Of a DNA stretch of 64,000 nucleotides, positions 16,386-49,614 are shown one piece after another; the first letter of the stretch is position 1, and each line of letters begins with the position of its first letter. The DNA comes from a virus, in the IMG/VR virus record IMGVR_UViG_3300021964_010186, positions 15,124 through 79,123 of that record; one strand, written 5' to 3'. Below the pieces are notes generated by a model that made no database searches, was not told the DNA's origin, and worked only from the letters and a program-made list of their open reading frames with translations. Both the position numbers and the translations under genes were made by a program.

Positions 16386-16388
16386 CTA

Positions 16389-16493: not shown

Positions 16494-16503
16494 TTTTTCT
16501 CTC

Positions 16504-22367: not shown

Positions 22368-22482
22368 CTTTCCCCTTGAAATAATCTTTCAGTTTATTGT
22401 ATTCGTGTTCCGGACAGAGCGTGTCACTCTCGAACATCACGTCCTTGACCCAGTGATAATGTGCTATCGTCTTCTTGCTCAT
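22348..22482 (-). CDS. 44-aa peptide
   Basis: MSKKTIAHYHWVKDVMFESDTLCPEHEYNKLKDYFKGKDGRSRI*; ATGA overlap with upstream stop; overlaps start of the rSAM gene. Confidence 0.6.
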   Translation of the reverse strand: MSKKTIAHYHWVKDVMFESDTLCPEHEYNKLKDYFKGKDGRSRI

Positions 22483-23093
22483 GAATTCATCCTTTGGTAT
22501 ACCTTTTCTGCCCATTGTTGATTTTGTTCTACGGTCATGTGATTGATTGTGCCAATACCCCAACCGTCCTTGACGATTGCCCCCTTGCTGAATGCAAATA
22601 TACTTTCGTCTATGACCGTGCCCGTCTCTAATTTGATACCGGCATCCTTGCCCGCCGTTTCAAAAGGTCGGAAACTCCACATCTGCACGATGGTTTTATC
22701 TTCGAGCGTTGATAACACGTTCTGATCATAATACTTCAATGCGTATTCGTAGGCCAACTCGTCTTTGTCATAATCGTGTAGATGTATCCAGTACTGTTCC
22801 AATGCCTTGTAAAGGTTTGGATCAACACCATCCAACGGTTGTGTGTTCGCACTTAAGGTGTATCTTGGGTGGTAAAGCCTGTATGGCTCAGTCCAACAGA
22901 ATATCGAAACATCTGGGACGCTGTCCTGTTCTATTAGTCTGTTGAAACGCATAAACACACTCCAGATACTGCGTCCAGGTTCACCAAACCATCTTATCCT
23001 AGAACACCCTAGTTTCTCCTGTAGGATGTTGCACCAGCTCTCGGGTTGATTGCTGGCACAGAAACTGTCTCCAAAAAATCCTATTGTCCTCAT
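22479..23093 (-). CDS. SGNH/GDSL-fold protein
   Basis: GFFGDSFC, GEPGRS, C-terminal NHM...N..WA. Confidence 0.6.
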   Translation of the reverse strand: MRTIGFFGDSFCASNQPESWCNILQEKLGCSRIRWFGEPGRSIWSVFMRFNRLIEQDSVPDVSIFCWTEPYRLYHPRYTLSANTQPLDGVDPNLYKALEQYWIHLHDYDKDELAYEYALKYYDQNVLSTLEDKTIVQMWSFRPFETAGKDAGIKLETGTVIDESIFAFSKGAIVKDGWGIGTINHMTVEQNQQWAEKVYQRMNS

Positions 23094-24073: not shown

Positions 24074-25440
24074 GCGTTCCTACACTCCTCCCAGAATTCC
24101 GCCATCTCAGGGAACGTGTTGAGGAACCTGGTCAGGCGCCTGCGATCGTGTTCCGAGAAAAAAGCGTAAAAATTACGTTTGTGCTGTGCGCTCGCGTCAG
24201 CGTTCTCGCGCCAGTATGCGAGATTGCGTCGCATCTTCTGGATCTCGAAGTCCTTGAATATGTGTAGCCCGTTTGACTCGCCGGAGTTGGCCTCCATGTA
24301 CTTGATGTTGTCTTCGTGTATGCTCTGGTAACTCTCGGGTAATAATGTTATCTGTTGCCATGCGGGTTGGCGTAGCAGTGGCACGTCAAACCAAACACGC
24401 TGATAAGTTTTACTGTATCGCTTACGCAGATCCAGTATCTTTTCCAACAATCGGTCCATGCTGGTTATACTGAGGTTGTTGTAGGTCACTATGAAGGTTA
24501 TGCTGTTACGCACTGGTATGCGATCCAGGAACTCCTCCACGTTCGCCATCATGCGATCGAAGTCCAATCCATGCCTGATGTACTCGGCGCGTTTGCCGAA
24601 CGCATCCACGCTGACGAACTGCATCATGTGTTCCACCTTCTCCTCCATGCAGATATTCTGCATCATGTTGAAGTACTTGTCCTTGAGTTTTGGGTCGGCC
24701 GGACACATGTTGGATGTTACGTTGAGATGTAGGTCCTCTTTGGGATGGTCAATGATGTACTGTAGCACCCGGTAGGTGTTGACATCCATCATGGGCTCCC
24801 CACCGGTCATGCGGAAGTGCTTGAGGTTCTTGTACAGTTCTGGCCACCATCGCCAGAAAGCGTCAACGTATGGGTTGGACTCCCTGTTGGGTATTGGACT
24901 CCTGCGTCCCTGGAAGTGCTCGGGAGCGTTGTGCGGTGGCGTGGTGGGGTACTCCCCATAGCGTTCCGTCTCCTTGCCCCAGGTGGTGGAGAACTGTGGC
25001 GAACAGTAACTACACTTGAAGTTACAAGCGTGGCTGAAGTTGACCTCCACGTACCTGGGCATCCATGTCTCAGACAATGGATTCTTTACAATTTCTTCAA
25101 AGTCCTGCATGGCCCATGGCTCTCCCGAACGGTAGTGACGATCACTCATCTCACCGGCGTCCTCCAGTTTCCAGCAGTAACTACAGCCCGCGGGCCTCTC
25201 ACCCGCCAGCATCTGTCGTCTTTGCTTCAACTTCTCGTTGGTGTTGTGAAGTGCCGTGGGATTGCTATGTAGTTTTGTCGCGTCAATCTCGTGCAGGGGT
25301 GGATGGTAGCAACTGTTGGTCAGTCCCGTTGGCAGGTGCAGTGACACCTGGTTCCACTTGGCCAGGCACATGGTGGGCGAAACTGTGGCCAGTTTCTGCT
25401 CGGCCTTCAGCGCATCATTCTTGTAGTCACTTGTACTCAC
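24070..25440 (-). CDS. radical SAM protein with N-terminal twitch-like domain (CxAKW subtype)
   Basis: MCLAKW...SCYHP...GCSYCW, then CNFKCSYC, TGGEP, AEYIRHG; clear paralogue of 21024..22367. Confidence 0.9.
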   Translation of the reverse strand: MSTSDYKNDALKAEQKLATVSPTMCLAKWNQVSLHLPTGLTNSCYHPPLHEIDATKLHSNPTALHNTNEKLKQRRQMLAGERPAGCSYCWKLEDAGEMSDRHYRSGEPWAMQDFEEIVKNPLSETWMPRYVEVNFSHACNFKCSYCSPQFSTTWGKETERYGEYPTTPPHNAPEHFQGRRSPIPNRESNPYVDAFWRWWPELYKNLKHFRMTGGEPMMDVNTYRVLQYIIDHPKEDLHLNVTSNMCPADPKLKDKYFNMMQNICMEEKVEHMMQFVSVDAFGKRAEYIRHGLDFDRMMANVEEFLDRIPVRNSITFIVTYNNLSITSMDRLLEKILDLRKRYSKTYQRVWFDVPLLRQPAWQQITLLPESYQSIHEDNIKYMEANSGESNGLHIFKDFEIQKMRRNLAYWRENADASAQHKRNFYAFFSEHDRRRLTRFLNTFPEMAEFWEECRNA

Positions 25441-26326
25441 GATCCTGCACTCCTTTATTACTGTGTTGTGGCATGACGAACTTGAAGAACCTGCTGTCTT
25501 CCACGCTGTAATCTGCCACTGGTATGTCTAATCTCTGCCTAATGCTTTCCCCATAAGTGTTGAGGTCTGCGTGTACATTCTGTTCATCCAGGTAGTTTGC
25601 AAACACCTCGTGCATACGATCTATGTCACTGATGCCCATTGCCCATTCGTGGCTCTCTACCGAGGTCTGGTAACACCCTATCCTGGCTCCCAACATAGCC
25701 CATAGTCCATTATCCACATCCGCGCCCACTGTCATCCACGTGGTCAGTATCCTCAGGTTCTGTGGCCAGATGTTTTTGAATTCGCGTGGAGGTATCGGCA
25801 CTCCCTTGTTGGTGCACATCTTGACGCCCTCCCTGTAGCCCGCAGTGAATGCCTGGTATTTGTCACCGTTGATTACAGTGGTGCTGTAGCAGTTGTGTAG
25901 GTTCTCGTGTGGTACGCCCCAACAGAAATCCAGTTTGTTTTCCTCGCTGTCAGCGTTCTCGTGTGTCTTCATAGCAAGGCAGGTCTCCTTGTGCCAGCCC
26001 ACCAGTCCACCATTACCGTACACCAGTCCGTTGATGTTGTTCTTGGCCCTCCACCTGTGCACTGCCTTGGGATCGGTCTTTGACCAGTCCAGGGTCTGTA
26101 TTAGGAAGCTCTCATCTATTATGTTGTCACCGTCCACGCTGATGAAGAAATCGGTCTCCGCCAGTTCCGCCGCGGCCTTGTGTGCGGAATCGAAACCCAC
26201 CACACCATCCACACGCTTGGCCCATGGCACTTTGTTCTTGAGGTCAGCCCAGTTCTGCTCCTTGTTGGGTTCACGGAAACTGATGTACACGAAATCCAGG
26301 TCGCTTACTCTGACTCTATCTGCCAT
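25427..26326 (-). CDS. GT-A fold glycosyltransferase-like protein
   Basis: FISFREPN, AKRVDGVVG.DSAHKAAA, SVDGDN (DxD), INGLVYGNGG, AGYREGVKM. Confidence 0.7.
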   Translation of the reverse strand: MADRVRVSDLDFVYISFREPNKEQNWADLKNKVPWAKRVDGVVGFDSAHKAAAELAETDFFISVDGDNIIDESFLIQTLDWSKTDPKAVHRWRAKNNINGLVYGNGGLVGWHKETCLAMKTHENADSEENKLDFCWGVPHENLHNCYSTTVINGDKYQAFTAGYREGVKMCTNKGVPIPPREFKNIWPQNLRILTTWMTVGADVDNGLWAMLGARIGCYQTSVESHEWAMGISDIDRMHEVFANYLDEQNVHADLNTYGESIRQRLDIPVADYSVEDSRFFKFVMPQHSNKGVQDREYK

Positions 26327-26610
26327 GCCTCTCCTCCCTGCATTATTCCGTTGGGCCAGTGTATGTCGCCGTGCTCGAAACTGTAGCCCTTTTCCGCCTT
26401 TACAAGAACACTGAATCGTGTTTTAGGCTTTGGTGGTGGTCTCAGTTCGAACCGAGTGGGTGACACCCAGTGGTAAGACTGCTCACCTTTTCTCATAATT
26501 TCTTTCTTTTTATCTAGACTGACCACAACCTCCCTTCCTTCTATACAGACAGTATGCTGTTTCTCAACCACAGGCGGCATAGACTGCAGAGCCTTAAGAA
26601 GTTCTGACAT
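26305..26610 (-). CDS. hypothetical protein
   Basis: Start moved to MSELLK (ATG 26610, AAGGAG SD). Confidence 0.65.
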   Translation of the reverse strand: MSELLKALQSMPPVVEKQHTVCIEGREVVVSLDKKKEIMRKGEQSYHWVSPTRFELRPPPKPKTRFSVLVKAEKGYSFEHGDIHWPNGIMQGGEAWQIESE

Positions 26611-27388
26611 AAATCTCCTTGTCGTGATAGTGCCATGGCCTGTTGATCCTTCTCTCACCGAGATAGATCGCATCGCCGTTCTGGTTGGGATAGAGGTAGT
26701 TGTTGTGATCACCCACCCTGTCGAGACGGTTGACGGCGGGCTTATGGTGTAGGAACTTGAACCACTCGTAGTCGATCAGGTGCTTGTTGGTGGGGTCCAT
26801 CATCCTATAGGCCAGTGCGAACACCACGTCAGTGCTGGGATAATCATCATGACAGTTTATCAGCATCGTTGTCTTGACCTCTCGCCAGTTCATCGTGATG
26901 TGCCTGGCCGTGTCAAAAAACTTTTGTGCGGTTTTGCTTTTCCTGAAGTACATCAGTCCGTTGTATATGTTGGGTAGGCAATTCCTCACGAACAGTGCCC
27001 TGTAGGGAGTGTGTTTGACTATTTCATCCTTGTAGTTCCTACAGTCAACGCTGAACACCATGTCGTGTTGCCACAGGTGATGCCACCACCAATCGGTGTT
27101 GTCAGTCCATAACACATCGGCCTCTAACTTGATCGTGTGGGTGAAAGGTGTCATGTGGAACGCCTTGTGTTCGTTGGCCCACTTGATCTCGTGTTCTGAG
27201 CTGTCATCCTGTTTTAACACTTTCACGATATCCACCGCGGGGTGTTCAAACCTGCTGTTCTCATCCGTGACCACACAAATTTGATTTTCTCTGTTATATC
27301 TCTTGATACTTTCTGCGAGTTTTATGCTTAACCCAACGTAATCTGTCTTGCTGTTGTTCTGTGCGAACCATAGGAATCCCTTAGACAT
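26594..27388 (-). CDS. GT8-like nucleotide-diphospho-sugar transferase
   Basis: KGFLWFAQN, TPFTHTIKLEAD (DxD-like), PNIYNGLMYF, STDVVFALA, HHK; start MSKG at 27388. Confidence 0.6.
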   Translation of the reverse strand: MSKGFLWFAQNNSKTDYVGLSIKLAESIKRYNRENQICVVTDENSRFEHPAVDIVKVLKQDDSSEHEIKWANEHKAFHMTPFTHTIKLEADVLWTDNTDWWWHHLWQHDMVFSVDCRNYKDEIVKHTPYRALFVRNCLPNIYNGLMYFRKSKTAQKFFDTARHITMNWREVKTTMLINCHDDYPSTDVVFALAYRMMDPTNKHLIDYEWFKFLHHKPAVNRLDRVGDHNNYLYPNQNGDAIYLGERRINRPWHYHDKEIYVRTS

Positions 27389-28130
27389 CGGCCAACTCCT
27401 TGTTGAGCACATGCACGTCTTGGTGTTCAGTGTAGTTGATCTGGTCGTTGCACTGCCAGGCGATGCCGGTGTCGGTAATTTTGATAACCTTGCACCCGGG
27501 TGGCAGGGTGGCTATACTCAAGGGCATGGTGTCGTACGTGATGAATCCGTTGGCCTGCTGTAGTGCTATAGCGAAAGCGTAATCGTTCCTGAAGTTCCTG
27601 GCGCGTATCCTGTACATCTCGTTGAAGTAATGGTAATATTGCTTGATGTACTTCACCGTGTCAAAAATGCGTTTAGCCTTTAGACCTTTCTTGAAGACGA
27701 ACACAGTGGCCCACACCATGTCTATCATGCTCCACTTCCGCATGTCAAAACTGCCAACGTTGGTGAGGTCATGTGCGTCCTTGGAAACAAGGAAGTCATA
27801 ATCAGTGTCCAGGAACTGCCTGAGGTTGTCAGTGAAAGGGAAGTAGTCGATGTCCATCACCAGCGTGACCTCATAGGGTGACAGTTCATAGGCCATGTGC
27901 CTGTCCACGTTGCGCCATTCAGATCCGTTCTTTGTGTTCCCCAGCTCGGGTTCGATGAACTTGTAGTTGATGAACCCCAGGGGTTTTAATTTTTTAAACG
28001 TGTCGTAGTCCGTGACCACCGTGATTTCCAGTTGTAGATTCCGTTTGATGAGTGCGACACAACGCTCCAGTATCCTGTGATATTGGACTTCTGTCGTGTC
28101 AAAACAAAATAATAGTACTCCCTTGGTCAT
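27381..28130 (-). CDS. GT8-like nucleotide-diphospho-sugar transferase
   Basis: KGVLLF, SPYEVTLVMDIDY (DxD), WATVFVF, FRNDYAFAIA, HVLNK; paralogous to the adjacent gene. Confidence 0.62.
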   Translation of the reverse strand: MTKGVLLFCFDTTEVQYHRILERCVALIKRNLQLEITVVTDYDTFKKLKPLGFINYKFIEPELGNTKNGSEWRNVDRHMAYELSPYEVTLVMDIDYFPFTDNLRQFLDTDYDFLVSKDAHDLTNVGSFDMRKWSMIDMVWATVFVFKKGLKAKRIFDTVKYIKQYYHYFNEMYRIRARNFRNDYAFAIALQQANGFITYDTMPLSIATLPPGCKVIKITDTGIAWQCNDQINYTEHQDVHVLNKELADV

Positions 28131-36765: not shown

Positions 36766-36771
36766 TATTTA
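36766..36771 (-). promoter_or_regulatory. putative late promoter TAAATA
   Basis: TAAATA 6 nt upstream of ATG 36759. Confidence 0.55.
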
Positions 36772-39700
36772 TTCAGGTGCATTTGTGGGCTCTTGTGCTA
36801 TGAATCTAGCCTGTTGAGTCGTAGAAGCCTGTAATCCCTTGCCGTCCGCTGGATTACCATCTGCTCCTGTGTACCAGACCTGTCCTTTCTTGTGTAATAT
36901 TTTTATCTGCGTGCCTGAAGCGGGTGCTGTCGTGTGTAATGTCACAGCAGTCGTGCTTCCGTCCACAGAATAGTTTATGGTTGATCCATCCTCGCTAGTG
37001 AGCAACAATCGTTGGCCACCAATGAATATGTCTAACTCACTAGCGGATGATGGTGTTTGTGATAGTGCGAATGTCAGTGTGCTACCGTCACCTGTGAAGG
37101 TGGTGGTGTACACTGTGTCCGCGTAAGGGATGGTTTGAGTACCAGACGCATCTACCACTTCCGTGCCTGATCCATGCTCCTTAATTCCTGTTCCCAGGGT
37201 TCCACGCCTTAGTTGTCCCAGCGTGTTGCCTGATTTCGTGAAGTATTCTATACGCTCCTTGTCTATGAAGATCACACCCGGGGTGTTACTGGCCACGTTT
37301 GGTGTGCCTAGCACCGTGCCGTCCGCGACCGTTATGGTCTGTGTGCCCTCGGTCATGTCCTTTGTCAATTTTGTTGTTGCAGTCTTGCTGATCCTCTTGT
37401 AGAAGGTCCTGTTCATCATGTCCTTGAATATCCTGAATCCCGTGGCGCCCACCGCGGAGTCAAGTGCGAAGTACATCACATCCAGCCTGTCCGCGGATGT
37501 GATAGTCTTGCCCACTATGGTTATCTTGGTGTCATCTGAAGTGAAGTAAGATCCTTGTGTGATCTGCTCTCCGTTCAACCAAACATACATGTATGTGGCG
37601 TTGAGTGGTTTGAATCTCAAGTAGAACTCACCCGATGGTTGTCCTTCCAGCACTTCCCTTCGCTGTTTCATGCCCAGTGCGTTGTTGAACGTGGTCACTG
37701 ATATCACGTCTGATGATGACAGAGAATACGGTGAAGTGATAGCACTAGGTAACAGTATGATATCCGTGCCTTCATTGTAGTAGTGATTGTCAACCAGTGT
37801 TGATATACATATCACATCTGTTGATGTTGGAACCGCACCAGAAACAAATTCCACGTTCTGATTGCCGATGTCCACCGTGTAGTCCGTGTTTAAATTTTTC
37901 TGCACACCGTTCACGAAGACTTGTACCTGACTTGCCGATGTGATTGTCTTGGCCGGATCCACTGTTGAGTCCTCACCCAGTCCTGACACCACGCCGTACG
38001 TGTACGTGCTTCCGTCACCTAGGTAGTAGGTGTTGTCTGGTCCACGCAACATCCTGCCATTGACTTCCACCATTGTGAGACCCGAGTATGGTCCTATAGA
38101 TCCTGGTGGGTAGGTCAGTGTGTGCCTATTGGTCGAGCCATCATAGGTGATCGCTTGGTTACTGATGCTGGCGTAACTCCTCGTTGATGTAGTCGACTTG
38201 TTGAATCCCGCTACCTGTATGAACTCACCCGCGGCCGGTGCCGATGTGAATGTGACCGTAATGGTGTTGGCAGTCGTGGTGGTTGTGTATGCGGTTGTTG
38301 GTACCCCGTCTATGGTTATGTACATATCACTGGACGTTGAGTCTAGATTGAACTCTCCCCTCGTCGATGTCAAGAATACCGCAGTCGATCCATCCCCTGT
38401 GAAAGTGTCCAGCACCCTGTAGTTCTCACCTGATATCGCAAACACCTTGGTGGATATCACGCTCAGGCTCGCCGGTGCTGACGTAAATGTTATGGTCTTG
38501 TTGGCCACGTCCACCGTGTAGTCGGTCGTCAGTTTCTTGATCACTCCATCCACTGCCACTGTCACTGATCCCAGTGTTCCTGGGTAGTCGCCTATAGAAT
38601 ATGTTGTGGTCAGCCCATCGCCCCTGTAGTTCTTCTCACTTATGAACGGCACTCCCGATTCCGGTGATGTGTATACCTTGATATCTAGTGTGTCGAACAA
38701 CTGTCCAGGTACAACCTCCTCTGGTGCGTAACTGGTGTCTGGTGTGACGAACCCGTCACCCTCTAGCAAGATGTCGCTCGGTGCGTAACCCAGTGCCGAA
38801 GTGAACAGTCCACCCTTGATTATGCTGTCCAATGTCCTGTCATCCGTTGGTGTCAACACGCCGTCGTCATCGAAAGGAATGAATTCCACCAATGCGTTCT
38901 CTTCTGGTGTTTCACTAATGGTAAAAGTCGCTGTGGATCCGTCGCCCCTTATGACGTCTGATAATTTTTTCCTTGTGCTGTCATCCTGTGTCAGGTAGAC
39001 CTGATAAACCTCAGTTGTAGCGGGCGCTGTATCAAAAGTGTATGACGCTGTTGATCCGTCTGCCCTGAACGCCTTGACCCTTGAGTTGCCATAGTTGTCC
39101 CATGGGAAGTCATACCATCCGGACCTGTCCCAACCCTGTTCTTGATTGAACAACAATCCCGTCACCATTGTTCCACCGTAGTCCACGCCCAACATCACTT
39201 GATCCAGTTCGTTGCCCGGCATTCCGGTGCCCGGCGTGTAGAATCCCTTGGTCCTGTCCGCCGCCGTCAGTCCGGTCTCGTTACCGTACACCTTGTACAC
39301 GCTTCCGATGTTGTCATCGAAGTCAGTGGTTGAAGTGAATGCGTTCGTCACCTTGTATAATTGGTCGTTGTATCTGATCAGATCGTTGTAGGCGTAACTG
39401 GTGCTGGCCGCCCAATCCACCACACGTGAAGTGCTTGACACCCTGTCAAACTTGATTGTGGTGTCAAAATCCCTGACGAGATCGTTGTTGAGATTTGCGT
39501 AGGCTTTAGCAGTATCAGTCGGAGTTGATCCATCCGTCTTACCACCTGAGAGTATGACCGTTGGTGTCGCTGTGTAGTTCGCACCTATGCCCGTGACCGT
39601 TATCCTCGTGACCGCACCATCCCTTATGGTCGCCGTGGCCGTGGCCGCGGTTGTCGTTGGTGTTACGTACATCTTGAACGTGCCTGATTTGGTGCCCTGT

Positions 39701-42700
39701 GCTTCGCTGGTGGACGCTGTGGGTCCATAGAACGTGCCCGAGTAACCGTCAAACGTGTATGATTTGGTCGTGCCCGCACCACCGTTCTGGGAGTCATATA
39801 TCTCGGCCTGTTTCTGGCTGGTGAACAGAGGATAGTAGTATCCGAATGATCCCGATGTGGCACCAGATGAACTCGTAGCCTGAATCTGGAATGGTCCTGT
39901 TGATCCCGTCGTGCCTCCCACTATGGTCACTGTTGGTGCCACTTCATAACCTGATCCTCCAGCGGTCACTGTGATGGATTGCACATACTTCTTGTGGTAG
40001 TCGTTCCACATCTGCCATGGGTACTGTGTGAGCTTGTCGGTGTCTAACGAAACGTTCAGTGATCTTATCTTGCCCGTGTCGCTGTCATAGAATGGAGGAT
40101 TGTCAAAGTCCGTGAATATACCGTCCTGTGTGTCAGTGCCTGTGTAACCCAGTTTGTACTCCCTGAGCTTGGTGTGGAAAGGTTTGACTTCGTTGATGTA
40201 GCTCTCTATCCAACTGTCCGTGCCTGTGGTGTATGTCTTACGTTGGTCCAACTGCCTCACCGAGTTCTTGGCGTTTATGAATGACGTCCTGAACATCCAG
40301 TCCACATAGGTCTGTTCTTCGAGTACTTTACGTAATCCTGTGAAGAAAAGTGTGTTGTACTCCACAGCGAGATCATTGATGAAAAGATCGTCCCGTAGTG
40401 CTGTCAATATTTTTCTAGTCTCGATGCTAGGTTCTTGGTCAAAGAAGTTGTCATCAAAGTTGTCCTCTCCCGCGAATCCCGTGGAATCCTGTGAGTAGTC
40501 ATACAGTTTAGTAGATAATCTTATGGTTCCGTTCTCCGTGCCCACGTTCTCCCAACCTGTGGCGGTCCTCATGAACAGTTTCCAGCCGCCCGTGTCGGCA
40601 CTGGTGACCTTGACATGTTTGCCCACCGCTAATTCTAATGTATCTAATTCATACTGGTATGTGACCTGTTTGTCGATTTTTGTGTCTTCATCATGTGCCA
40701 TGTCGCCCGTGGTCTTGTACCAGTCGGTGTAACTCCAGTACGCCGATGTGTTGTAGGTCTGTATTTTTGTCCTTGACCATTCTGTGCCGTCCCACGTGTA
40801 TATGGCCCAGAAGTTATTTGCCGTCTCGTCCGCCTTGACCAGGTACTTCACAGTTCCTGAAAGGTCAGCCGTGTTGATGTAGGTCAATTCAGCATATGTA
40901 TCCACCGAAGAGTCCCACTCTAGGCTCTCTGCGGTTGGCTCTGGATCCTTGGCGTCTAGGTTTGTAAGATTGATCTGTCCGACCAATTGATTCTTCTTCA
41001 GTACCGAGTTGGCATAATCTATGATCTCTTTCAATGCCGAATACCTGTCCACGTACCAGCTCTGCCTAGGCCTTGTGTTGTTGCCGTACTTCTCGTTCAA
41101 TGGTAATTCCACGTCAGGGACCAAATCCCCCGCGGAGTTCTTGCCTATCAGTGAGTCCCACCAACGTGTCTCTATCTGTTGTCCCGGCCTGTACTCCTTG
41201 TCGCCCTCCCTGGCCAGTTTCCAAACGCTGTGTGCATCACCATCGAACGTGTTGGTCCTGATGTCGATGTTGAGGACTATGTCATTGTTGACCAAATCCT
41301 TGACGTTGTTGATCACGAACTTGTTGGTGCCCGTGATGGAGTAATATTTGAAATCGAATCTGGTCGGATTCGCTATGAGGTTCGCCACGTACGAAGCCGA
41401 ATTCTTCCTGTTGACGACACTATCTGTGGGAACCGTTGACTTGTTCCTGACCCAGTAGTAATAGTAGTTGACGAACGCATCCAACCTAGAGCTGTATTTC
41501 TGTACCACTGTGTACTGTGAATTATCGCCGTAAAGTGCGGTTCCGGATATGGTTTGCCCTGTGCCCCTGATCCTATTATTCCATTCGCTCGGTAGCAGTG
41601 TCGATTCCGTCCATTCATAAATGTCTATGCTGGAACCAGGGAAAAATTTTCCCCATGTGTTAGTCCTGTACTCCTGTGTGTCTTGTTCGTACCACAACCA
41701 TTTGACCGTCGATAGATCCCACCAGATCTCGCCCTTGTGGTTCTCCGCCCATGGCGTCTTGCTGTTGGCGTTGGGGCCAAAGTTATAAGTGGCCGGATCC
41801 CATGTGGTCTTGATGTTGATCTCCCTATCGGCCAATCCTAATATCCTACCCTTTATAGGATCGTACAATTCGTAGTAGTCCCTAATCTGTTTGGTCTTGT
41901 TGTTGAATTCAAAGACCTGTCCCAATTTGTCTATGTCCATCAACGGTGTTTCCGTGACCAGGTTCTTCCAAGCGTACTCTCCATTGACTGTTAAGTCGAA
42001 ACAAGCAACCGTACCGTCGTTGCTGATCTTGGAACTGCCGTCGGCTGTGTCTATGTTTCCGTCATCCTGTGGTGATCCCACGAACACTGAATTGTCAATC
42101 ATGCACACACCACGGCCGAAATCATCATTCTCACTCACACTGTTGTTGATCAGTTTGTCATCGATCACGAACTTGGTGTTGTACATAGTGGCCGTGAATG
42201 CCCCACCTGAACCCGTGTTGAGATCAACGAAGTTAGTGTCCTGTAGATCGAACGTGGTCTCACCAGAATCGAACTTCATCTCTCTGCTATTTGCGAAATT
42301 TTCTGACCCTATCACTATCCTTGTTCCTGATTGATTTATGTCCAACGCCGTGCCAAACTTCATGTTGGTTTGTGATTCTGGAGAACTGATCGTCTGTTGT
42401 AATGTGTATGTGTTGGTAGAATCATCCGCGTTCCATTTGTAGTAGTAGACAGCACCTGTGTCTGGATTATCGGTTCCGTCCACTCCCGGTGCTCCTATGA
42501 TCAGTGTTGTGCCGTCTTTGTTCATTGCCAGTGACTCACCGAACGCCGTGTTCAATGATGAACCGTCGCTGGCCACACCTGTTATCGTCTGTGCCAGTGC
42601 GAATGAGTTCTGTGTGCTTCCGTCGTTGCTCTGTGATGTCTTGATGAATATTTCCACCTTGCCCGCGTTGCCTGGCGCCACCGAGCTCACCGCCAGGATG

Positions 42701-45700
42701 TCACCGTTGTCGTTGGCCGCTATCCTGTGACCGAATCTCTGTCCCGAACCACCCGCTGGTGCCTCTATGGTGTAGTCCTGTGTCCAGGTGTCGTACGTTG
42801 ATCCATCTGCTCCTATGCCCCAGGTGTACATGTACACCCTACCGGTGTCATTGCTGTGTCCGGGTGCTGAAACGAACAGGTACTTGTCTGCCGTGGTCCT
42901 CACAGATGATGTGCCTGGCTCTGATATCTTATGCGCCCATCCAAAATTCTGTGATGCGGCATCGACCGGTGGTGTGATCGTGTTGAGTATTCCGTACTTG
43001 AATGTGCTGGAATCCCACAAGTAGATCTTGACAAGTCCTGAATCCGAGAATCTAGTGCTTCCGTCTGACCCCACCGCGTTCGTGTATGGCGCTCCTGCCA
43101 CAACGAAGTTCTCGTCAGTGCTGATCGAAAGTGACTCGCCCAACCTACTGGTGTTGTCGTCGTTGTCGGTCATCGTTGCCGTTAACTGCGTCTGTAGTAG
43201 CGTTCCCGCCGCGGACGATGTCCTGAACAAGAAGTGTACTTCACCTTGACCTTTGCCTGGTGCTGAAACTATCACTGTCCTTCCGTCATTCCTTGCTACT
43301 ATCCTATGACCGAACTCCTGCTCTGTGGTGCTGATGTCTGGGGACAGTACTAATCCTGTGGTGTATGGATCCTGTTTCTCGTACACACGCCACAACCCCG
43401 AACTGTCAGCGTCCGCGAAAACCTTGTCTCCCTCACGCTCTATGTCGTCATCCTTGTCCTGGTACTCCGAGTAACTGATCAGATCGTTGACATTGTCCAT
43501 GGACGCCAACCTTACCGATATGAATTTGTACACGTTGCCATAACTGTCTGCAGTTGATCCGTCCTCCAGCGCAGGTATGAATCCCACGTTGCCGGTGTAG
43601 TCTATTATGACAGTCTTGTGGTCAGGTGTGCTTGATACCCTGTATACGCCGTTCAGTGTTGGTTCCTCGCTGTTGGCTATGGCAAAGTAATCGGCCTGTG
43701 TGCTTGTTGTCCCCGCCGACAAGCCATGTGATCCCGTGAACGTGATCTCTAGTTGTGTGGAACTATCGACCAGTCTAAGGTCTGCTATCTTGACACCTGC
43801 GTTGGTGATCCTGAACACGTCCCAATCCCTGTTGCTCTTGTTTGCCACCCACACTAGGTCATTGGTGGTTATGGCGTTCATGTCTAGATTGAGTATCTCA
43901 TCTATGTTGAATGCAGTGTGTTGTACCTGTTGCAGTTGTGGGTATCCCGCCGTCTTGTATACCTGTGCCGTGTCTCTGTCCACGCCCTGCTTGGTGTAGT
44001 CCAACCTGGCGAAGGTGTTGGCCGCCGTGTACTCAACTGGCTTGTAGTAGAACTTGTTCTTGGCTATGGCCTCTGATCTGGCATACTCCACCGTGCCAGA
44101 GGATGTGTCCAACAGCTCTATGCTCTGCGGGTCGGCGGTTATCTCATCATTGCTTAGAGTTATCTGTATGTTTTCTACGGAATCAGTGTTGCCGAACTTG
44201 CCGGTACGTATCATCCATTCCGGATAGAGATCCAGCGTGATGTCCTCGCCCTCGTACTTGGCTTTTAGGATCCTGTCTATGGCGTTCTGTGTTCCCTTCT
44301 CCCTGATGTAGCCCTGGTAGAACTTGTACTGTGACACGTCATTGACGAAAAGGTTCTCCAGGTAGTCCCTACTCTGGTAACCGATCAACCTCTGTGCCAA
44401 CTGTTGCTGTGATTCATCGAAGTTGTTGGTCTCCAGGTTGTAGAAGTCATTGAACTGTGCGATTTTGTATTCGAAGTTTGGTATCAACTGCGGTGCTGGC
44501 TTGTCTGACTTTAAGATCCAAGTGGTGCTGTCAAAACTCGTGCCGGAGTTATGATTGATTTTGGCCACGTAGAACTTGCCTTGGTACTCCACACTGTCAC
44601 CTATCCTGTAGTCAGTGTTGGCCAACCAGTATGTGACCTGTGCGGCGTCGAACATGAAGCCCGGTGCGTAGTAGTCACCGTTCCATCCGGCCGTCTTCCA
44701 TCCCACCAATTTCAATCTCTGTTGTCTGAATCCAGTGAATGGTTCATATATGATATCCGAGAACACTGTGCTGTTGTCGAATAATAAAACGTGTTCCTTC
44801 TGTACTGTGTTCAAGGCGATGTTGTATAGACCTATGCTGTCTGACTTGATCCCCAGCTCAAACGTCTTACCTATTCTCTTGGTGGAAATTTCTCGTACGT
44901 CTATCTTCCTGCCGCCCGCATCTAGTATGGAGTAATCTCCCGCCAGGTTCCTTAATTTACCCACGATGCTGTTGTTCGTGTCCAGTTCGAAACCGTCCGC
45001 GGCGGGTGATACCGTCACCGCCGATCCTGGTGACCACTCCTGTGTGGTCCAGAAAAGGAATTCCCTCACGGCGTTTGACCAGTTCAGTGTTTCCTTCAGT
45101 TCATTCGAGAACTTGTTGAATCGGAATCCCTGTGATTCCAACCAGTGGCCGTATCCAAACAGGAAGTCGGCAACATCCTGTATGGTGTTAAAAACATATC
45201 CATAAGGTATGGTCTGTACCGTTTCTTGATAGTTGGTGTATTGTTTAATCTGTTGCGATCCCTGTACCGAGACCGACGTGCTGGTGGTGGTCCTGATGGG
45301 ATAGTTGAAATTGAAGTATGGTTTGACCGTGCTGTAACCCAGTACCTTGTATCCACCTAACAGCGTTGATCCGTCTTCGCTTACATCGGTGTTTTTCTCT
45401 ATCAACACTCCAGAATAGTTGAAACTCTCCACGGGATTTGACGTCCTGAACAGTATCTTGTAGTTCTCGTCTGGTATGAATTTGGAACCCGAGGTCGACC
45501 CAGGTGAAACGGAATCCGTCAGCACCTTGATGTTGTCTTTGTCTGTGAATCCGCCCAACTTGTAGGCCAACTGCACGGTGAGATTCTTCATCTTCTTGTA
45601 GTAGAACGTGATGGGATCTAGATTCTTAGACACCAGATAGTTGACCACTAAAGGCTGATAGCCCGCCGTCTGGTATCTCGTGATCGTGCCGGTGGCTAGA

Positions 45701-48700
45701 TCTGTTACAGTCTCTAAATGATACTTGGCGGTGGCCAATGTTTTCCTGATACCAGTCTCTGAATATATCTGATTGCCCGCCGTGTTGGTCGTGAGCCTAG
45801 ATGGATCAAAGAAGTTAGAGAAGAACCTAGCCGGTTTGGTAAGTGCCAGTGCCTTCATCACAGTGAATGGATAAGAGCTAGATCTCCTCCATGCCGTCTC
45901 CGCTGGTGCTTGATCCCCGAACTTCCATGCGTTCTGCCTGCCTGGTATGTCAAAGTTGTCTATCAGTCCGGCCGCTATGGGATCCAGTAGATTGCCCGAA
46001 GCGTCAACCGGTAGGTATGACCTTATGGTTGATTTGCCGTACCTGCCTGGCTCCGTGGCTATCTTGTTCCACAGCACGTCGTTGCCTGACGTGTAAGGTG
46101 CGGTTCCATAGGTGGCGTCCCAATCTGCCGGTTTCTCTGAGTGTCCGAGCATCTCCCATGGTCTTGTGTGTGGGGAGTCCGTGTCGTAGAAATATTTGTA
46201 GATGCCCCTCCAGTGTCCTGGCAAGGTCTGGTTGTTCAACCTGTCAGTGGATCTGGCGTAGTTGTATGTGAATGGTGAGCCTTCAGAGAATGTGGTGTTG
46301 TTGATGTACTGCACGTTGTTTCTTCCCGCCCATAGGTAGAAGTCTGGTCCCATCACATCATTAATTTCCTGTAGAGTGTAATCCGTTGAGGTGAACGCAC
46401 TAGGCATCACATCATGGATGTCCAACAATGTTGAATCGTATGCTGTCTTACAGTTGTTGTAGATCCTCTTTTCTAATTCCAGTATAAGGTCATCGCGCTC
46501 ATCACCATAGGCCTTGATCATTGATCCATCGTGTCTCCTGATCATGGTCTGATTAGTGATGTATGTGTCGTCCGTGAAAGATTCTGGTTTGAACTTAGGA
46601 TATATGCCCAACTTGGTAGGTGAAGGTGGCATGTAACTGCCTGTGGTGTCCGGGTAGTCCTTGATCACTATCTTATCCCCTTCTTCCAATGCCTTTGTTA
46701 TGTTGACGCTGTCATCAGAGGTACTGAAAGTGTAATCTGTGCCTAGAAGCAGTTGAACATTGTTTAAGTAAACGTAGACTGCCCTGTTGCTAGGAGTTGT
46801 AATATCATGCTGTGAATCCAAAGCATATTCCGTCTGTGATGATCCCATCACAGTGTAATTCCTCACAGACACGTTCTCTCCCCATCCCATCATGTCCTCG
46901 TAGAAGAACGGGAAGGTGTTGTTCCTGCCTGGCGTGATGACTGTTATGATCTCGTCCACCCTGTCAGCGGCCACTCCCTCGTAGGCCGTGCCGATGGCGT
47001 GCGTCAAGAAAGCGTTGTACCATTTCTCGTACTCCTGGTTGACGTAGTCTATGGCCGATGCCATGTTGGTCTCTTGATCTATCAGGCCAAACACTGCGGG
47101 CAATAAAGGTGCCTCGTGCTGGTGTATGCTACCACCCTTCAACCTTGCGTCTGGTTTGTCTCGTAAATTACTTTTCCCTGGAATGGCACCTGTCACTTCC
47201 TGGTTCTTGTCAAATATGTCCCTCACGTGGTTCAGTATCTGTCCATATGTGAACGTGCCCAACTGCTGGTTGAGGCTGTTGGTTGCCAGGTTCTCTGGGA
47301 TCTCGTATATACCCTTGTCCACGATCTTGTCAGCACTGCTGTGCGCCGCTATCCTTATTTGGTCATTGACTTTTAGTTCGCTGTTGAATCTGATGTACTT
47401 GTTCTTTGTTCCATTGACCAGCGTGTAGTCAGTCGTGATTGTTTTCCTGGTCCCGTTAACGGACACTGACACTTCTAGGTCAGTCAGTGAGGCAGAATTC
47501 TTGTAAAAGTCTATCGGGAACAACTGTTTCTCCGTGTCGTCAACTATGAAAGTTCTGATCACCCTCTGTCTGCTCTCGTTGGTCCTTTTGATCCAGGCGC
47601 TCCTTGAGTTGTGCGTGGTCCTGCCTGTGGTGTAGTGTAGGTGTCCTTCCGCCAGGTTCTTTGTGAGCGTCTTTGACCCACTCTTGTAGGTAAACGTGCC
47701 CGACGTATGGTCCGATTCAAAAACGATGTCTCCCACGTTGTTGATGGTGTTGTACTTGACCTTTATGCCCAGCACAGTGTCTGTGGTAGCCGTGTCTGAT
47801 GTGGCGTACGAGAACACCTTGGCTCCAGTGAACGATGAGTTTGGATACGTTGTTGTGTCAGCGAATGACACGTGATTGTTGTCCCACATTCCAAACAAAG
47901 GCTGTTGGTTGACGCCGGTCTTCTGTTGTGAGGCCGTCCATGATTCAGTTGTGCCATCGTAGTAGAAGGTCTTGCCCTGGTTCGTTGTGCCGAACTCTAT
48001 GAACACGCTGTCCAGCGCTGTCGGTGTGCCATCGGTGGCCTCGGTCAATGCGATCACCTGTGTGGAATCACCCGCCGTCACGAAGTACACGTCGTATATC
48101 TTGTTCTTGACTATGGGATCCGTGTCAGAGGCGAAGATGACCCTCATGCCGTTCGCCAACGCTAGGCCGTCCACTATGTAACCGGTCTGTCCCACCACGT
48201 TGCTGAACGCGTCCGTGGTAACTGTGTCGTACAGAGTGACCGATCTCTTGGCCACCGTACCGTGGTTGTAAAGTGCCAGTCCCGAGTCGAACTCTATGAT
48301 GGGTCTCTTGGCCCTGTCGTCCTCGTTCAGTGTAGGGGTGTAGCCTCCCACCCTGGCCGTCTCCTCGATCACGGATTTGTGGAACCACCTGTTGTATCTC
48401 GACCAGGCGTTCTGGTCCTGCGAGTCCCTCTTGATTGTTATGTAGTCTTTTGTGTCTGGGGTGTAGTAGGCCTTGGCGTAGGGTCTTGTGTCATATCCCA
48501 CCTGGTCATAGAGTATGGTGGTCTCCGTGGCGTAACTGCCCGGGGTGATCAGATCGTCAACGTCCGTTAACGTTATTGCATCTCCCACGCCCTCCACGAA
48601 GTACTCCTTGCTCTGGTATGTGGATGCCACCAGTGAATTGGTAAATTTTATCTTCATGCCATTGGACAGTGCCAGCGTCCTCAGGCTGTAATTCTTGACC

Positions 48701-49614
48701 CCTATGATGTCGTCTGCTGGATTGATTGACGTGGTTGCAGTGGCGTCCTTGATCTGAAGTATGCCGTACATGGCGTCATGGTTGCCACACTGGTAATATA
48801 ATGTGTCTGGTGCACCTGAAGTGGGCACCGTGAAGGTGACCGTTCCCTTGTCCGTGCCGTTGTTGGTCACTCCCGTGTCAAATATGGTAGACGTTGATCC
48901 GTCAACGGAAACCTTGCTCTTGTAGGGTTCGGTCATTATCCAGAAAGGATGTCCTACAGCGTCAACATTGAATTTGTATGTGTTGCCCCTGTACAGTGTC
49001 AGTATGGGGTTCTTTTCGTTCTCCCTGTGTGGGAACTCCCAGCCCGAGTTGTCAGAGTATGCCTCTGTCTTGTATTCCACCACTGCCGCGGGGCCAACTG
49101 AATCTATCTCTATAGAACTTGGACCTTCCGGTATCCAGTAGTACTCCCTGTAGTTGACCAGTTTGTCGTAGTCGATGGCCGGGTTCCAACTGTACACGGT
49201 CTCCTTGTTGAGCCTGTCGTGGTTGTTGACCTTGCCTCCGAGGTATTTGATCTGGTTGATGTAGTCGTCATACGTTCCTGTGAACTTGACCTGGTCCTCA
49301 GTATTCACTGATGTGGTGTCCCTGTCGGTGTATGTCACGGCAGGTTCCAATTGGTATGCGAACCTATCCCTGCTGGTGGCTCCTATGTATCTGTCTGTGA
49401 CCTGTCTGGTGTAGGCGTCCTGCCTGCCTATGTACCCATCTAGTCTTTCCAGCGCACCCTTTTGTACCAGTGGATCTAAAGTGCTGGCCAGGAAACGTTG
49501 GTTGGTGTCGGTCCTGTAGAATGCTGGTAGGTGTTGTACCGTTCGTCTGTACTCGTTGGTGCCCTGACGGACTACCTCGTTGTTACTCAGTGCGTTGGTG
49601 GGATTGTCGGCCAT
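36769..49614 (-). CDS. giant (4281 aa) baseplate wedge/receptor-binding structural protein
   Basis: Follows the gp6-like gene; contains KPFHTKLR, a 7-repeat FG-GAP-like propeller, CBM-like modules, a cupredoxin-like module and GDGST beta-sandwich repeats. Confidence 0.8.
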   Translation of the reverse strand: MADNPTNALSNNEVVRQGTNEYRRTVQHLPAFYRTDTNQRFLASTLDPLVQKGALERLDGYIGRQDAYTRQVTDRYIGATSRDRFAYQLEPAVTYTDRDTTSVNTEDQVKFTGTYDDYINQIKYLGGKVNNHDRLNKETVYSWNPAIDYDKLVNYREYYWIPEGPSSIEIDSVGPAAVVEYKTEAYSDNSGWEFPHRENEKNPILTLYRGNTYKFNVDAVGHPFWIMTEPYKSKVSVDGSTSTIFDTGVTNNGTDKGTVTFTVPTSGAPDTLYYQCGNHDAMYGILQIKDATATTSINPADDIIGVKNYSLRTLALSNGMKIKFTNSLVASTYQSKEYFVEGVGDAITLTDVDDLITPGSYATETTILYDQVGYDTRPYAKAYYTPDTKDYITIKRDSQDQNAWSRYNRWFHKSVIEETARVGGYTPTLNEDDRAKRPIIEFDSGLALYNHGTVAKRSVTLYDTVTTDAFSNVVGQTGYIVDGLALANGMRVIFASDTDPIVKNKIYDVYFVTAGDSTQVIALTEATDGTPTALDSVFIEFGTTNQGKTFYYDGTTESWTASQQKTGVNQQPLFGMWDNNHVSFADTTTYPNSSFTGAKVFSYATSDTATTDTVLGIKVKYNTINNVGDIVFESDHTSGTFTYKSGSKTLTKNLAEGHLHYTTGRTTHNSRSAWIKRTNESRQRVIRTFIVDDTEKQLFPIDFYKNSASLTDLEVSVSVNGTRKTITTDYTLVNGTKNKYIRFNSELKVNDQIRIAAHSSADKIVDKGIYEIPENLATNSLNQQLGTFTYGQILNHVRDIFDKNQEVTGAIPGKSNLRDKPDARLKGGSIHQHEAPLLPAVFGLIDQETNMASAIDYVNQEYEKWYNAFLTHAIGTAYEGVAADRVDEIITVITPGRNNTFPFFYEDMMGWGENVSVRNYTVMGSSQTEYALDSQHDITTPSNRAVYVYLNNVQLLLGTDYTFSTSDDSVNITKALEEGDKIVIKDYPDTTGSYMPPSPTKLGIYPKFKPESFTDDTYITNQTMIRRHDGSMIKAYGDERDDLILELEKRIYNNCKTAYDSTLLDIHDVMPSAFTSTDYTLQEINDVMGPDFYLWAGRNNVQYINNTTFSEGSPFTYNYARSTDRLNNQTLPGHWRGIYKYFYDTDSPHTRPWEMLGHSEKPADWDATYGTAPYTSGNDVLWNKIATEPGRYGKSTIRSYLPVDASGNLLDPIAAGLIDNFDIPGRQNAWKFGDQAPAETAWRRSSSYPFTVMKALALTKPARFFSNFFDPSRLTTNTAGNQIYSETGIRKTLATAKYHLETVTDLATGTITRYQTAGYQPLVVNYLVSKNLDPITFYYKKMKNLTVQLAYKLGGFTDKDNIKVLTDSVSPGSTSGSKFIPDENYKILFRTSNPVESFNYSGVLIEKNTDVSEDGSTLLGGYKVLGYSTVKPYFNFNYPIRTTTSTSVSVQGSQQIKQYTNYQETVQTIPYGYVFNTIQDVADFLFGYGHWLESQGFRFNKFSNELKETLNWSNAVREFLFWTTQEWSPGSAVTVSPAADGFELDTNNSIVGKLRNLAGDYSILDAGGRKIDVREISTKRIGKTFELGIKSDSIGLYNIALNTVQKEHVLLFDNSTVFSDIIYEPFTGFRQQRLKLVGWKTAGWNGDYYAPGFMFDAAQVTYWLANTDYRIGDSVEYQGKFYVAKINHNSGTSFDSTTWILKSDKPAPQLIPNFEYKIAQFNDFYNLETNNFDESQQQLAQRLIGYQSRDYLENLFVNDVSQYKFYQGYIREKGTQNAIDRILKAKYEGEDITLDLYPEWMIRTGKFGNTDSVENIQITLSNDEITADPQSIELLDTSSGTVEYARSEAIAKNKFYYKPVEYTAANTFARLDYTKQGVDRDTAQVYKTAGYPQLQQVQHTAFNIDEILNLDMNAITTNDLVWVANKSNRDWDVFRITNAGVKIADLRLVDSSTQLEITFTGSHGLSAGTTSTQADYFAIANSEEPTLNGVYRVSSTPDHKTVIIDYTGNVGFIPALEDGSTADSYGNVYKFISVRLASMDNVNDLISYSEYQDKDDDIEREGDKVFADADSSGLWRVYEKQDPYTTGLVLSPDISTTEQEFGHRIVARNDGRTVIVSAPGKGQGEVHFLFRTSSAAGTLLQTQLTATMTDNDDNTSRLGESLSISTDENFVVAGAPYTNAVGSDGSTRFSDSGLVKIYLWDSSTFKYGILNTITPPVDAASQNFGWAHKISEPGTSSVRTTADKYLFVSAPGHSNDTGRVYMYTWGIGADGSTYDTWTQDYTIEAPAGGSGQRFGHRIAANDNGDILAVSSVAPGNAGKVEIFIKTSQSNDGSTQNSFALAQTITGVASDGSSLNTAFGESLAMNKDGTTLIIGAPGVDGTDNPDTGAVYYYKWNADDSTNTYTLQQTISSPESQTNMKFGTALDINQSGTRIVIGSENFANSREMKFDSGETTFDLQDTNFVDLNTGSGGAFTATMYNTKFVIDDKLINNSVSENDDFGRGVCMIDNSVFVGSPQDDGNIDTADGSSKISNDGTVACFDLTVNGEYAWKNLVTETPLMDIDKLGQVFEFNNKTKQIRDYYELYDPIKGRILGLADREINIKTTWDPATYNFGPNANSKTPWAENHKGEIWWDLSTVKWLWYEQDTQEYRTNTWGKFFPGSSIDIYEWTESTLLPSEWNNRIRGTGQTISGTALYGDNSQYTVVQKYSSRLDAFVNYYYYWVRNKSTVPTDSVVNRKNSASYVANLIANPTRFDFKYYSITGTNKFVINNVKDLVNNDIVLNIDIRTNTFDGDAHSVWKLAREGDKEYRPGQQIETRWWDSLIGKNSAGDLVPDVELPLNEKYGNNTRPRQSWYVDRYSALKEIIDYANSVLKKNQLVGQINLTNLDAKDPEPTAESLEWDSSVDTYAELTYINTADLSGTVKYLVKADETANNFWAIYTWDGTEWSRTKIQTYNTSAYWSYTDWYKTTGDMAHDEDTKIDKQVTYQYELDTLELAVGKHVKVTSADTGGWKLFMRTATGWENVGTENGTIRLSTKLYDYSQDSTGFAGEDNFDDNFFDQEPSIETRKILTALRDDLFINDLAVEYNTLFFTGLRKVLEEQTYVDWMFRTSFINAKNSVRQLDQRKTYTTGTDSWIESYINEVKPFHTKLREYKLGYTGTDTQDGIFTDFDNPPFYDSDTGKIRSLNVSLDTDKLTQYPWQMWNDYHKKYVQSITVTAGGSGYEVAPTVTIVGGTTGSTGPFQIQATSSSGATSGSFGYYYPLFTSQKQAEIYDSQNGGAGTTKSYTFDGYSGTFYGPTASTSEAQGTKSGTFKMYVTPTTTAATATATIRDGAVTRITVTGIGANYTATPTVILSGGKTDGSTPTDTAKAYANLNNDLVRDFDTTIKFDRVSSTSRVVDWAASTSYAYNDLIRYNDQLYKVTNAFTSTTDFDDNIGSVYKVYGNETGLTAADRTKGFYTPGTGMPGNELDQVMLGVDYGGTMVTGLLFNQEQGWDRSGWYDFPWDNYGNSRVKAFRADGSTASYTFDTAPATTEVYQVYLTQDDSTRKKLSDVIRGDGSTATFTISETPEENALVEFIPFDDDGVLTPTDDRTLDSIIKGGLFTSALGYAPSDILLEGDGFVTPDTSYAPEEVVPGQLFDTLDIKVYTSPESGVPFISEKNYRGDGLTTTYSIGDYPGTLGSVTVAVDGVIKKLTTDYTVDVANKTITFTSAPASLSVISTKVFAISGENYRVLDTFTGDGSTAVFLTSTRGEFNLDSTSSDMYITIDGVPTTAYTTTTTANTITVTFTSAPAAGEFIQVAGFNKSTTSTRSYASISNQAITYDGSTNRHTLTYPPGSIGPYSGLTMVEVNGRMLRGPDNTYYLGDGSTYTYGVVSGLGEDSTVDPAKTITSASQVQVFVNGVQKNLNTDYTVDIGNQNVEFVSGAVPTSTDVICISTLVDNHYYNEGTDIILLPSAITSPYSLSSSDVISVTTFNNALGMKQRREVLEGQPSGEFYLRFKPLNATYMYVWLNGEQITQGSYFTSDDTKITIVGKTITSADRLDVMYFALDSAVGATGFRIFKDMMNRTFYKRISKTATTKLTKDMTEGTQTITVADGTVLGTPNVASNTPGVIFIDKERIEYFTKSGNTLGQLRRGTLGTGIKEHGSGTEVVDASGTQTIPYADTVYTTTFTGDGSTLTFALSQTPSSASELDIFIGGQRLLLTSEDGSTINYSVDGSTTAVTLHTTAPASGTQIKILHKKGQVWYTGADGNPADGKGLQASTTQQARFIAQEPTNAPE

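Follow-up and report, generated by a model that had tools for sequence, protein, structure and literature searches.

The tetrapeptide DGST in the giant baseplate protein of a marine phage clade: enrichment, conservation and a possible role as a structural turn

The giant baseplate protein and its gene

In a 64,000-nucleotide stretch of viral DNA (hereafter the window; positions 15,124 to 79,123 of the IMG/VR virus record IMGVR_UViG_3300021964_010186), a single open reading frame (ORF) on the minus strand encodes a giant virion (baseplate) protein of 4281 amino acids (aa) in which the tetrapeptide DGST recurs far more often than expected from composition. The source is a 79-kb IMG/VR contig that was judged to be 22% complete, which implies a phage genome of several hundred kb. 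The name 'giant baseplate protein' seems fair given the position and homology of the gene, which occupies the gp7 position, with a gene for a gp6-like baseplate wedge protein (49614-53096; PHROG 10646/219, 'baseplate wedge subunit') located directly upstream. The protein matches PHROG 10938, 'virion structural protein', with E=0, and according to its annotation, the homologue from a cultured phage, PA5oct gp355, was found in virions by electrospray ionization tandem mass spectrometry (ESI-MS/MS). The family is large: one search yielded 509 proteins at E<=1e-5. The copies of the motif and the domains that carry them are distributed as follows.

36769..49614, minus strand: giant virion (baseplate) protein, 4281 aa, a single ORF in the gp7 position
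48892..48903, minus strand: DGST at aa 238, in an N-terminal cupredoxin-like insert; DGST in 69 of 80 homologues
45364..45375, minus strand: DGST at aa 1414, in a loop inserted in the conserved core; DGST in 71 of 80 homologues
43552..43563, minus strand: DGST at aa 2018, in a small domain that precedes the propeller
41965..43317, minus strand: integrin-alpha-like FG-GAP beta-propeller, aa ~2100-2550, with DGST at 2184, 2270 and 2331, DGSS at 2350 and 2525, DDST at 2397 and DSST at 2201
39523..39534, minus strand: DGST at aa 3361, in a loop that joins two strands of a beta domain
36865..39102, minus strand: C-terminal array of tail-type beta-sandwiches, aa ~3505-4250, with DGST at module starts 3519, 3558, 3741, 3825, 3867 and 4176, DGLT at module start 3666, and inner-loop DGST in the last module at 4209 and 4218

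DGST is enriched at the protein level

The original prediction, made from this DNA alone, was that about 15 copies of DGST, along with two each of DGSS, DDST and DSST, in place of less than one expected copy of DGST, mark a candidate modification sequon. The counts proved exact, position by position: the 4281 aa contain DGST 15 times and DGSS, DDST and DSST twice each, and the expectation for DGST, calculated for independent and identically distributed residues, is 0.24. DGST is the commonest 4-mer of the protein, the runner-up being TDYT with 5 copies. The suggested comparison with shuffled sequence came out the same way: in 500 residue shuffles, no 4-mer reached more than 6 copies and DGST never exceeded 2. 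Of the 18 DGS tripeptides, 15 continue with T, and when the six copies at the starts of tail modules (see below) are removed, nine copies of DGST are left, still against 0.24 expected. Tail and baseplate proteins rich in Thr, ~4,900 aa in all, are among the other 43 ORFs of the window, none of which contains DGST.

The excess of 15 copies over 0.24, with a DGST maximum of 2 among the shuffles, rules out chance and composition. At the DNA level, 7 of the 15 copies share the word GAYGGATCAAC, all 7 occurrences of which lie in the giant gene, and the Gly codon is GGA in 13 of the 15 copies versus 37% gene-wide; both observations favor the possibility that DGST reflects a DNA word, such as the GGATC inside GAYGGATCAAC, rather than a feature of the protein. 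However, the Ser codon belongs to the TCN set (TCA, TCC, TCG) in 10 copies and is AGC in the other 5; because both TCN and AGC codons are used, selection acts on the protein. Furthermore, the GGA bias belongs to the query and is not family-wide: across 81 genes, the codons within DGST track the general usage of the gene (GGA, 50% vs 43%), and the protein motif is kept while synonymous sites vary. A DNA-level word is ruled out by the AGC serines and by the codon use of the family, and altogether we see practically no chance that chance, composition or such a word accounts for DGST. In the window as a whole, GATC occurs 395 times, compared to ~246 expected from the base composition.

The copies occupy loops in several folds

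Two segments of the giant protein were modelled with AlphaFold (AF2) using family alignments, namely, aa 1925-2560, with a mean predicted local distance difference test score (pLDDT) of 86 and a predicted template modelling score (pTM) of 0.85, and aa 3205-4281, with a pLDDT of 69 and an all-beta structure; secondary structure was assigned with DSSP. When the motifs are mapped on these predicted structures, as the original prediction proposed, every covered site falls in a loop or turn between strands or, at 2018, at the N-terminus of a helix.

The propeller is recognized by Pfam FG-GAP_2 (PF14312; 41.2 bits, cut-off 23) and, in Foldseek comparisons, by its similarity to integrin alpha headpieces (E 1.8e-13 to 4wk2_A). 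In four of its blades, a D-x-S-T turn between strands occupies the equivalent place (DSST at 2201, 2270, 2331 and DDST at 2397), and the motifs at 2184, 2350 and 2525 belong to other loops of the propeller. The segment of aa 3205-4281 resembles the immunoglobulin-like (Ig-like) arrays of phage tails and baseplates (Foldseek: the tail complex of cyanophage A4 and the baseplates of phi812 and phiKZ), and in its model the same succession of a long strand, a 6-residue loop x(G)DGST and a short strand recurs seven times, DGLT 3666 included. At site 2018, D-G is coil and S-T starts a short helix (model residues 94-97, helix 96-101; pLDDT of the block, 57). Site 3361 (model residues 157-160) lies within the loop of residues 153-162 and flickers with DGTT among the homologues. 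The loop that contains site 1414 aligns with a gap in PA5oct, Atu_ph07, RaK2, Phosso and Vibrio 2.275.O; at this site, the loop is an insertion that is missing from the cultured homologues.

Six copies of DGST, then, start beta-sandwich modules, and the remaining nine are found in propeller loops, in two inner loops of the last module and in four single loops (238, 1414, 2018 and 3361). The claims that some copies begin beta-sandwich repeats and that many others lie in unrelated contexts both hold, and the motifs do not all belong to one duplicated domain type; a single duplicated domain as their source is ruled out by the presence of at least two repeated folds and four single contexts.

Other segments of the giant protein can be noted here. 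The cupredoxin-like stretch of aa ~200-285 (~48760-49020, minus strand), which includes GHPFWI and YYQCGNHDAMYG and contains DGST 238, holds one of the giant's very few Cys residues and is variable or absent in the cultured homologues. There are also two segments of the chitin-binding type CBM_5_12, one detected by Pfam over the cut-off and the other by a weak match in a profile comparison to the chitin-binding domain of chitinase A1 (PDB 1ed7).

44539-44628 (aa 1663-1692) and ~39319-39414 (aa 3401-3432): CBM_5_12 segments of the giant protein

About half of the copies are the signature of a widespread tail module

The C-terminal modules have the consensus start F-T-G-D-G-S-T-T-x-F-x-L, and the units at 3558, 3666, 3741, 3867 and 4176 align on the signature F/Y-x-G-D-G-(S/T)-T-x-x-F-x-L. 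At E<=1e-3, a profile of this module picks out 10,331 representative proteins. The best 150 of them supplied 631 instances of the module, in which the start runs F, T, G (77%), D (71%; N in 20%), G (89%), S (52%; T in 19%), T (64%), T, x, F (75%), x, L. The same best 150 proteins contain 211 DGST against 10.6 expected, 129 of the 211 as GDGST, and the commonest pair after GDG is 'ST' (129 of 392), these statistics being biased in that the search profile itself contained GDGST. Even with this bias, the figures show GDGST..F.L to be an ordinary signature of a very common tail module, and inherited module starts explain about half of the copies in the query. The six copies concerned (seven with DGLT 3666) are an inherited module hallmark and, as such, do not represent independent placements.

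A search of PDB sequences with the module profile A3 (hmmsearch) produced weak matches in which the GDG start is aligned, namely, 7y22_e (E=0.001), 8gtc_G (0.019) and 6tba (0.072); the aligned starts read 'LGDGSRTAFQ' in the distal tail protein 8gtc and 'TGDGVATTF' in the tail adaptor 7y22. The PDB sequence search with the whole C-terminal profile yielded only spurious weak matches, and there is a weak overlap between the module and Pfam DUF2460. Like the modules of the giant, the C-terminal domain of the RcGTA/phage distal tail protein (6tba, 8gtc) and the tail adaptor (7y22) have a first strand F/Y-x-G-D-G-(S/T/V) followed by x-x-F-x-L, V-x-V-x-G, Y-T-V and a last strand, in an all-beta fold that often occurs in tandem in tail, fibre and baseplate proteins. 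By contrast, Ser-Thr after D-G is far more strictly fixed in the giant, which contains DGST also in inner loops and in other folds, and the matches that connect the two are weak (E 0.001-0.07).

The motif is conserved in a marine clade and gained in new loops

A scan of IMG/VR identified 80 loci with full-length homologues of the giant at 56-88% identity. All 80 of these homologues contain DGST, with 8-19 copies each against ~0.24 expected, at common alignment columns. The conservation of the four motif columns is 0.87-0.92, compared to 0.64-0.79 for the eight flanking columns on each side and to 0.70 and 0.74 for the other Ser and Thr positions, respectively. Among the substitutions, D, S and T are kept more than G (DEST, DNST, DQST, DLST, DDST, DAST, DPST), and S and T are swapped. 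When the 81 proteins are placed on a tree, many sites switch back and forth between DGST and similar tetrapeptides, one of them changing as often as 15 times, and new copies of DGST appear in variable loops of some lineages: TFHTGDGSTANPP in L085, SLDGSTAADYTV in L077 and L074, and GLSDGSTVDPAK in L087 and L077. The repeated independent placement of the motif in loops that the original prediction envisaged is thus seen in the gains and losses in the variable loops of relatives and does not extend to the six copies that came with the module.

The cultured homologues in PA5oct, Atu_ph07, Phosso, SCTP-2, RaK2 and Vibrio 2.275.O contain no DGST; the marine clade itself has no cultured member. The matches of the homologue search with the conserved core are all at >=76% identity; more distant giants came from the search with the module profile. 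The contexts of DGST inspected in those giants are nearly all module starts, the exception being L160, and the full-length ones keep x-D/N-G-x-(S/T) at the module starts even where other sites differ. By this comparison, the nine non-module copies are specific to the marine clade.

DGST as a proposed structural turn

DGST is enriched, conserved, located in loops and the hallmark of a tail module. We suggest that it is a compact polar turn or loop-cap micro-motif that joins beta-strands at the surface, a reading to which we give about an even chance; its atomic geometry and the selective reason for its clade-specific spread are what we infer. Such a turn would have two origins in the giant protein. 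About half of the copies would have come with the tail beta-sandwich module, tandem duplication of which would have multiplied the motif, and the others would result from the fixation, within the marine clade, of DGST or D-x-S-T in other loops, namely, the equivalent hairpin of four blades, further propeller loops, the inner loops of the last module and the four single loops. Conceivably, Asp would cap NH groups of the turn backbone with its side chain, Gly would adopt a tight conformation, and the hydroxyls of Ser/Thr would bond back and start the next strand. The result would be a rigid, hydrophilic, uncharged-to-acidic connection of the kind that suits a long-lived part of the virion. The preferential retention of D, S and T over G and the interchange of S and T are as expected for side-chain capping.

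A short turn that recurs in propellers and unrelated folds is not without precedent, the Asp-box hairpin motif being the case in point (PMC2716378). With its pattern S-x-D-x-G-x-T-W, the Asp-box, or bacterial neuraminidase repeat, is a short Asp/Gly/Thr beta-hairpin micro-scaffold that is found across folds, as DGST would be under the structural reading, but its spacing and aromatic residue are absent from DGST, there is no sequence relation between the two, and none of the 15 DGST contexts fits the consensus (S/t)-x-(D/n)-x-G-x-(T/s)-(W/f/y) (PMC2716378).

Several observations, besides the bias of the module statistics, weigh against a structural turn as the full explanation. About 60 more metagenomic giants, mostly full length and with 25-35% identity, contain only 0-7 DGST, the full-length homologues with this range being at 27-35% identity, and the propeller hairpins of the distant giants have other turns (N-G, S-G) or lack the loop. 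With so few copies in these homologues, the fold evidently does not require DGST, which rules out a general fold requirement and makes the spread outside the modules a feature of the marine clade; a structural turn alone does not explain why one tetrapeptide became fixed in approximately nine non-module loops. Nor does it explain what is seen beyond the giant protein. The non-giant ORFs of G001, a 196-kb relative within the clade, contain 10 DGST against 1.67 expected, a 6-fold enrichment, whereas in two phages from outside it DGST is about as frequent as expected by chance (1 vs 0.53 and 2 vs 1.01); six DGST-containing ORFs of G001 that were scanned against PHROGs all match virion, tail or unknown-function families. 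The claim that the other structural proteins are not similarly enriched therefore stands for the window and needs qualification in view of this relative. Enrichment in the virion proteins of G001, combined with chance levels outside the clade, would fit a trans-acting factor. In addition, Asp-Gly is chemically labile, and a stable protein would not obviously be built with many conserved D-G pairs in exposed positions. The spread of the motif across the clade, into other virion proteins as well, makes a trans-acting cause a real possibility.

The location of the copies in surface loops, their clade-specific spread and the presence of DGST in several virion proteins of the relative would also agree with a repeated docking mark, to be recognized by another component of the virion (fibres or decoration proteins, for instance) or by a host ligand. 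However, no partner was identified, the structural settings of the sites are very different, and four residues offer little binding energy; we regard such a mark as highly improbable.

A metal-binding turn has to be considered as well, in which the Asp carboxylate, the Ser/Thr hydroxyls and backbone carbonyls would hold a Ca2+ or Mg2+ ion that stiffens the loop. The integrin-type propeller fold binds Ca2+ in hairpins, and both ions are abundant in seawater. The retention of D, S and T side chains around a second position that tolerates change, and the metagenomic sources of the clade, which are marine, agree with this possibility. The propeller copies share the scaffold of the integrin-alpha/FG-GAP propeller (FG-GAP_2 over the cut-off, Foldseek E ~1e-13) but the canonical Ca2+ hairpin, D-x-D/N-x-D-G-x-x-D, is absent at the DGST sites; the blades show short turns instead (NKDGTT, NDNGDI), and D-x-S-T lies in a different hairpin. 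The D-x-S-x-S pattern of the metal ion-dependent adhesion site (MIDAS) fits only one of the 15 copies (238, DGSTS), so there is no match to a known metal motif. A lone acidic residue makes a weak ligand set, and DGST is missing from the marine Vibrio phage 2.275.O as well as from SCTP-2, a saltern phage. On this balance, we consider a metal-binding turn unlikely.

The downstream operon and possible modification of the motif

Beyond three genes for tail-fibre-like proteins, the giant gene is followed by a large operon with sugar and radical S-adenosylmethionine (SAM) genes that could, in principle, supply a trans-acting factor.

29490-31118, 33109-34524 and 34535-36031, minus strand: three paralogous tail-fibre-like proteins, between the giant gene and the operon
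9622..28130, minus strand: downstream operon with a glycosyltransferase A-like (GT-A-like) candidate, five N_Twi radical SAM genes and sugar/carbamoyl genes
27381-28130, minus strand: GT-A-like candidate ORF, 249 aa, recognized by language-model features, with no hidden Markov model (HMM) family above threshold
17282-25440, minus strand: five N_Twi radical SAM genes (NF033640, 327.6 bits, cut-off 170)
Rest of the operon (Pfam): P-loop kinase, carbamoyltransferase, NDP-sugar epimerase/dehydratase, DegT aminotransferase and Gfo/Idh/MocA oxidoreductase

In this setting, DGST, with the core D-x-S-T, could be a sequon to which a transferase of the operon adds a sugar or another group, on Ser/Thr in exposed loops of the giant and of some other virion proteins. 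We consider this possible but rather improbable. A more specific version, in which D-x-S-T is the acceptor of a phage virion O-modification and the operon makes an aminosugar or carbamoylated glycan to decorate surface loops of the giant and of some tail proteins, is a candidate of somewhat lower probability still. Several of the properties described above agree with a sequon: the motifs are in loops, several of them with lower model confidence than the adjoining strands; they form a clade-specific, conserved island amid variable flanks; they were repeatedly gained in new loops of L085, L077/L074 and L087/L077; G is less conserved than the other three residues; and DGST is enriched in the other virion proteins of G001 and not in two outside phages.

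The operon itself contributes evidence on both sides. The ORF at 27381-28130 shows a language-model likeness of 0.96-0.97 to viral nucleotide-diphospho-sugar transferases and GT8, along with a sub-threshold match to DUF5672 (E=0.002), but no glycosyltransferase was found over the Pfam, NCBIfam or PHROG thresholds. Every contig of the marine clade that is long enough carries an NF033640 array, and such arrays also occur in a second clade, the giants of which have only 1-4 DGST; seven long contigs and six cultured genomes lack them, and the 13 giants of these have 0-1 DGST. In this comparison, phages without a twitch-radical SAM array have giants nearly free of DGST, in agreement with the original prediction, and the motif is not equally common where these genes are missing. 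When placed on the tree, the data comprise two contrasts, in both of which the array-bearing clade exceeds its array-less relatives in DGST; the difference is not significant, two contrasts being too few to mean much.

Moreover, in two DGST-poor array-bearing phages (G025 and G019), the fibre genes, the GT-like ORFs and the radical SAM genes are syntenic orthologues of those in the window; the same transferase candidate and array thus coexist with giants that have 1-4 DGST, nearly all at module starts. Orthologues of the DegT, epimerase/dehydratase, carbamoyltransferase and Gfo/Idh/MocA genes (window 9622-15415) are present in G001 and in neither G025 nor G019, so that only the aminosugar and carbamoyl genes looked clade-specific when judged against these two contigs. 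The three tail-fibre-like proteins are alike in their N-terminal part (PHROG 15511/14394/8309), a fibre-like C-terminus (PHROG 22593/19602) is common to two of them, and all are homologous to Atu_ph07 gp176; although located between the giant gene and the operon, they contain no DGST. Six to seven of the copies in the giant are an old module hallmark shared with thousands of proteins, and the operon could equally act on host surface glycans. The link between the operon and the motif is unproven, the data neither establishing nor excluding it.

Virus-encoded glycosylation of virions offers a general parallel. In the mycobacteriophage capsid and tail tube, and in chloroviruses and mimiviruses, the virus likewise has its own sugar genes beside structural genes, whereas here both the transferase and the modification are putative. 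Freeman et al. reportedly described, in 2023, virion glycosylation by phage enzymes in mycobacteriophages. To our knowledge, DGST fits no known bacterial sequon, and we know of no glycosylation sequon of virus-encoded systems that resembles it. Known bacterial glycosylation sequons are D-(S/T)-(A/I/L/V/M/T) in Bacteroidetes, D/E-x-N-x-S/T in Campylobacter and N-x-S/T. DGST does not fit these patterns, as it lacks Asn and its Asp is separated from the hydroxy residue; within the motif set, D-S-T is found only in the rare DDST variants. As identities for DGST, then, the Asp-box, MIDAS, the integrin Ca2+ loop and the known sequons all fail on the sequence pattern. A full-text literature search gave nothing useful on DGST in phages or on radical SAM genes and baseplates of jumbo phages.

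Some further observations concern the radical SAM genes and their surroundings. Arrays of 7-9 N_Twi genes (NF033640 over the cut-off), located ~10 kb downstream of the giant gene, occur in two uncultured clades (window 17282-25440, G019, G020, G025, G026, G027 and G037) and are absent from sister clades. In Atu_ph07 (116.6-123.1 kb; L104) and Phosso (185.9-192.4 kb), there are four radical SAM matches just downstream of the giant gene, in frames of ~320-420 aa, three of which are annotated in Atu_ph07, interleaved with hypothetical genes. These genes have no tblastn homology to the operon of the window, with NF033640 below the cut-off or without a match, and look like a parallel arrangement in soil giant phages; as they are not homologous to the operon, their presence beside DGST-free giants was dropped as a counter-example to the link. 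In the window, a MoxR-type AAA ATPase gene is followed by one for a DUF2201 metallopeptidase/VWA protein (4942-7289, plus strand), and the opposite strand block contains one more radical SAM gene (3725-4849), together with a PsiE-like gene (7763-8143).

Implications

If DGST is a structural turn, the giant protein would clearly illustrate how, in nature, a turn of four residues has come to occupy several folds within a single protein, and the motif would be useful for the annotation and modelling of tail proteins, where GDGST..F.L marks a very common but poorly named tail module. If, instead, DGST is a sequon, it would be the first defined acceptor motif of virion glycosylation in tailed phages outside the actinobacteriophages, the modification system would belong to a phage group that is abundant in marine metagenomes, and the large operon of sugar and radical SAM genes would gain a substrate.

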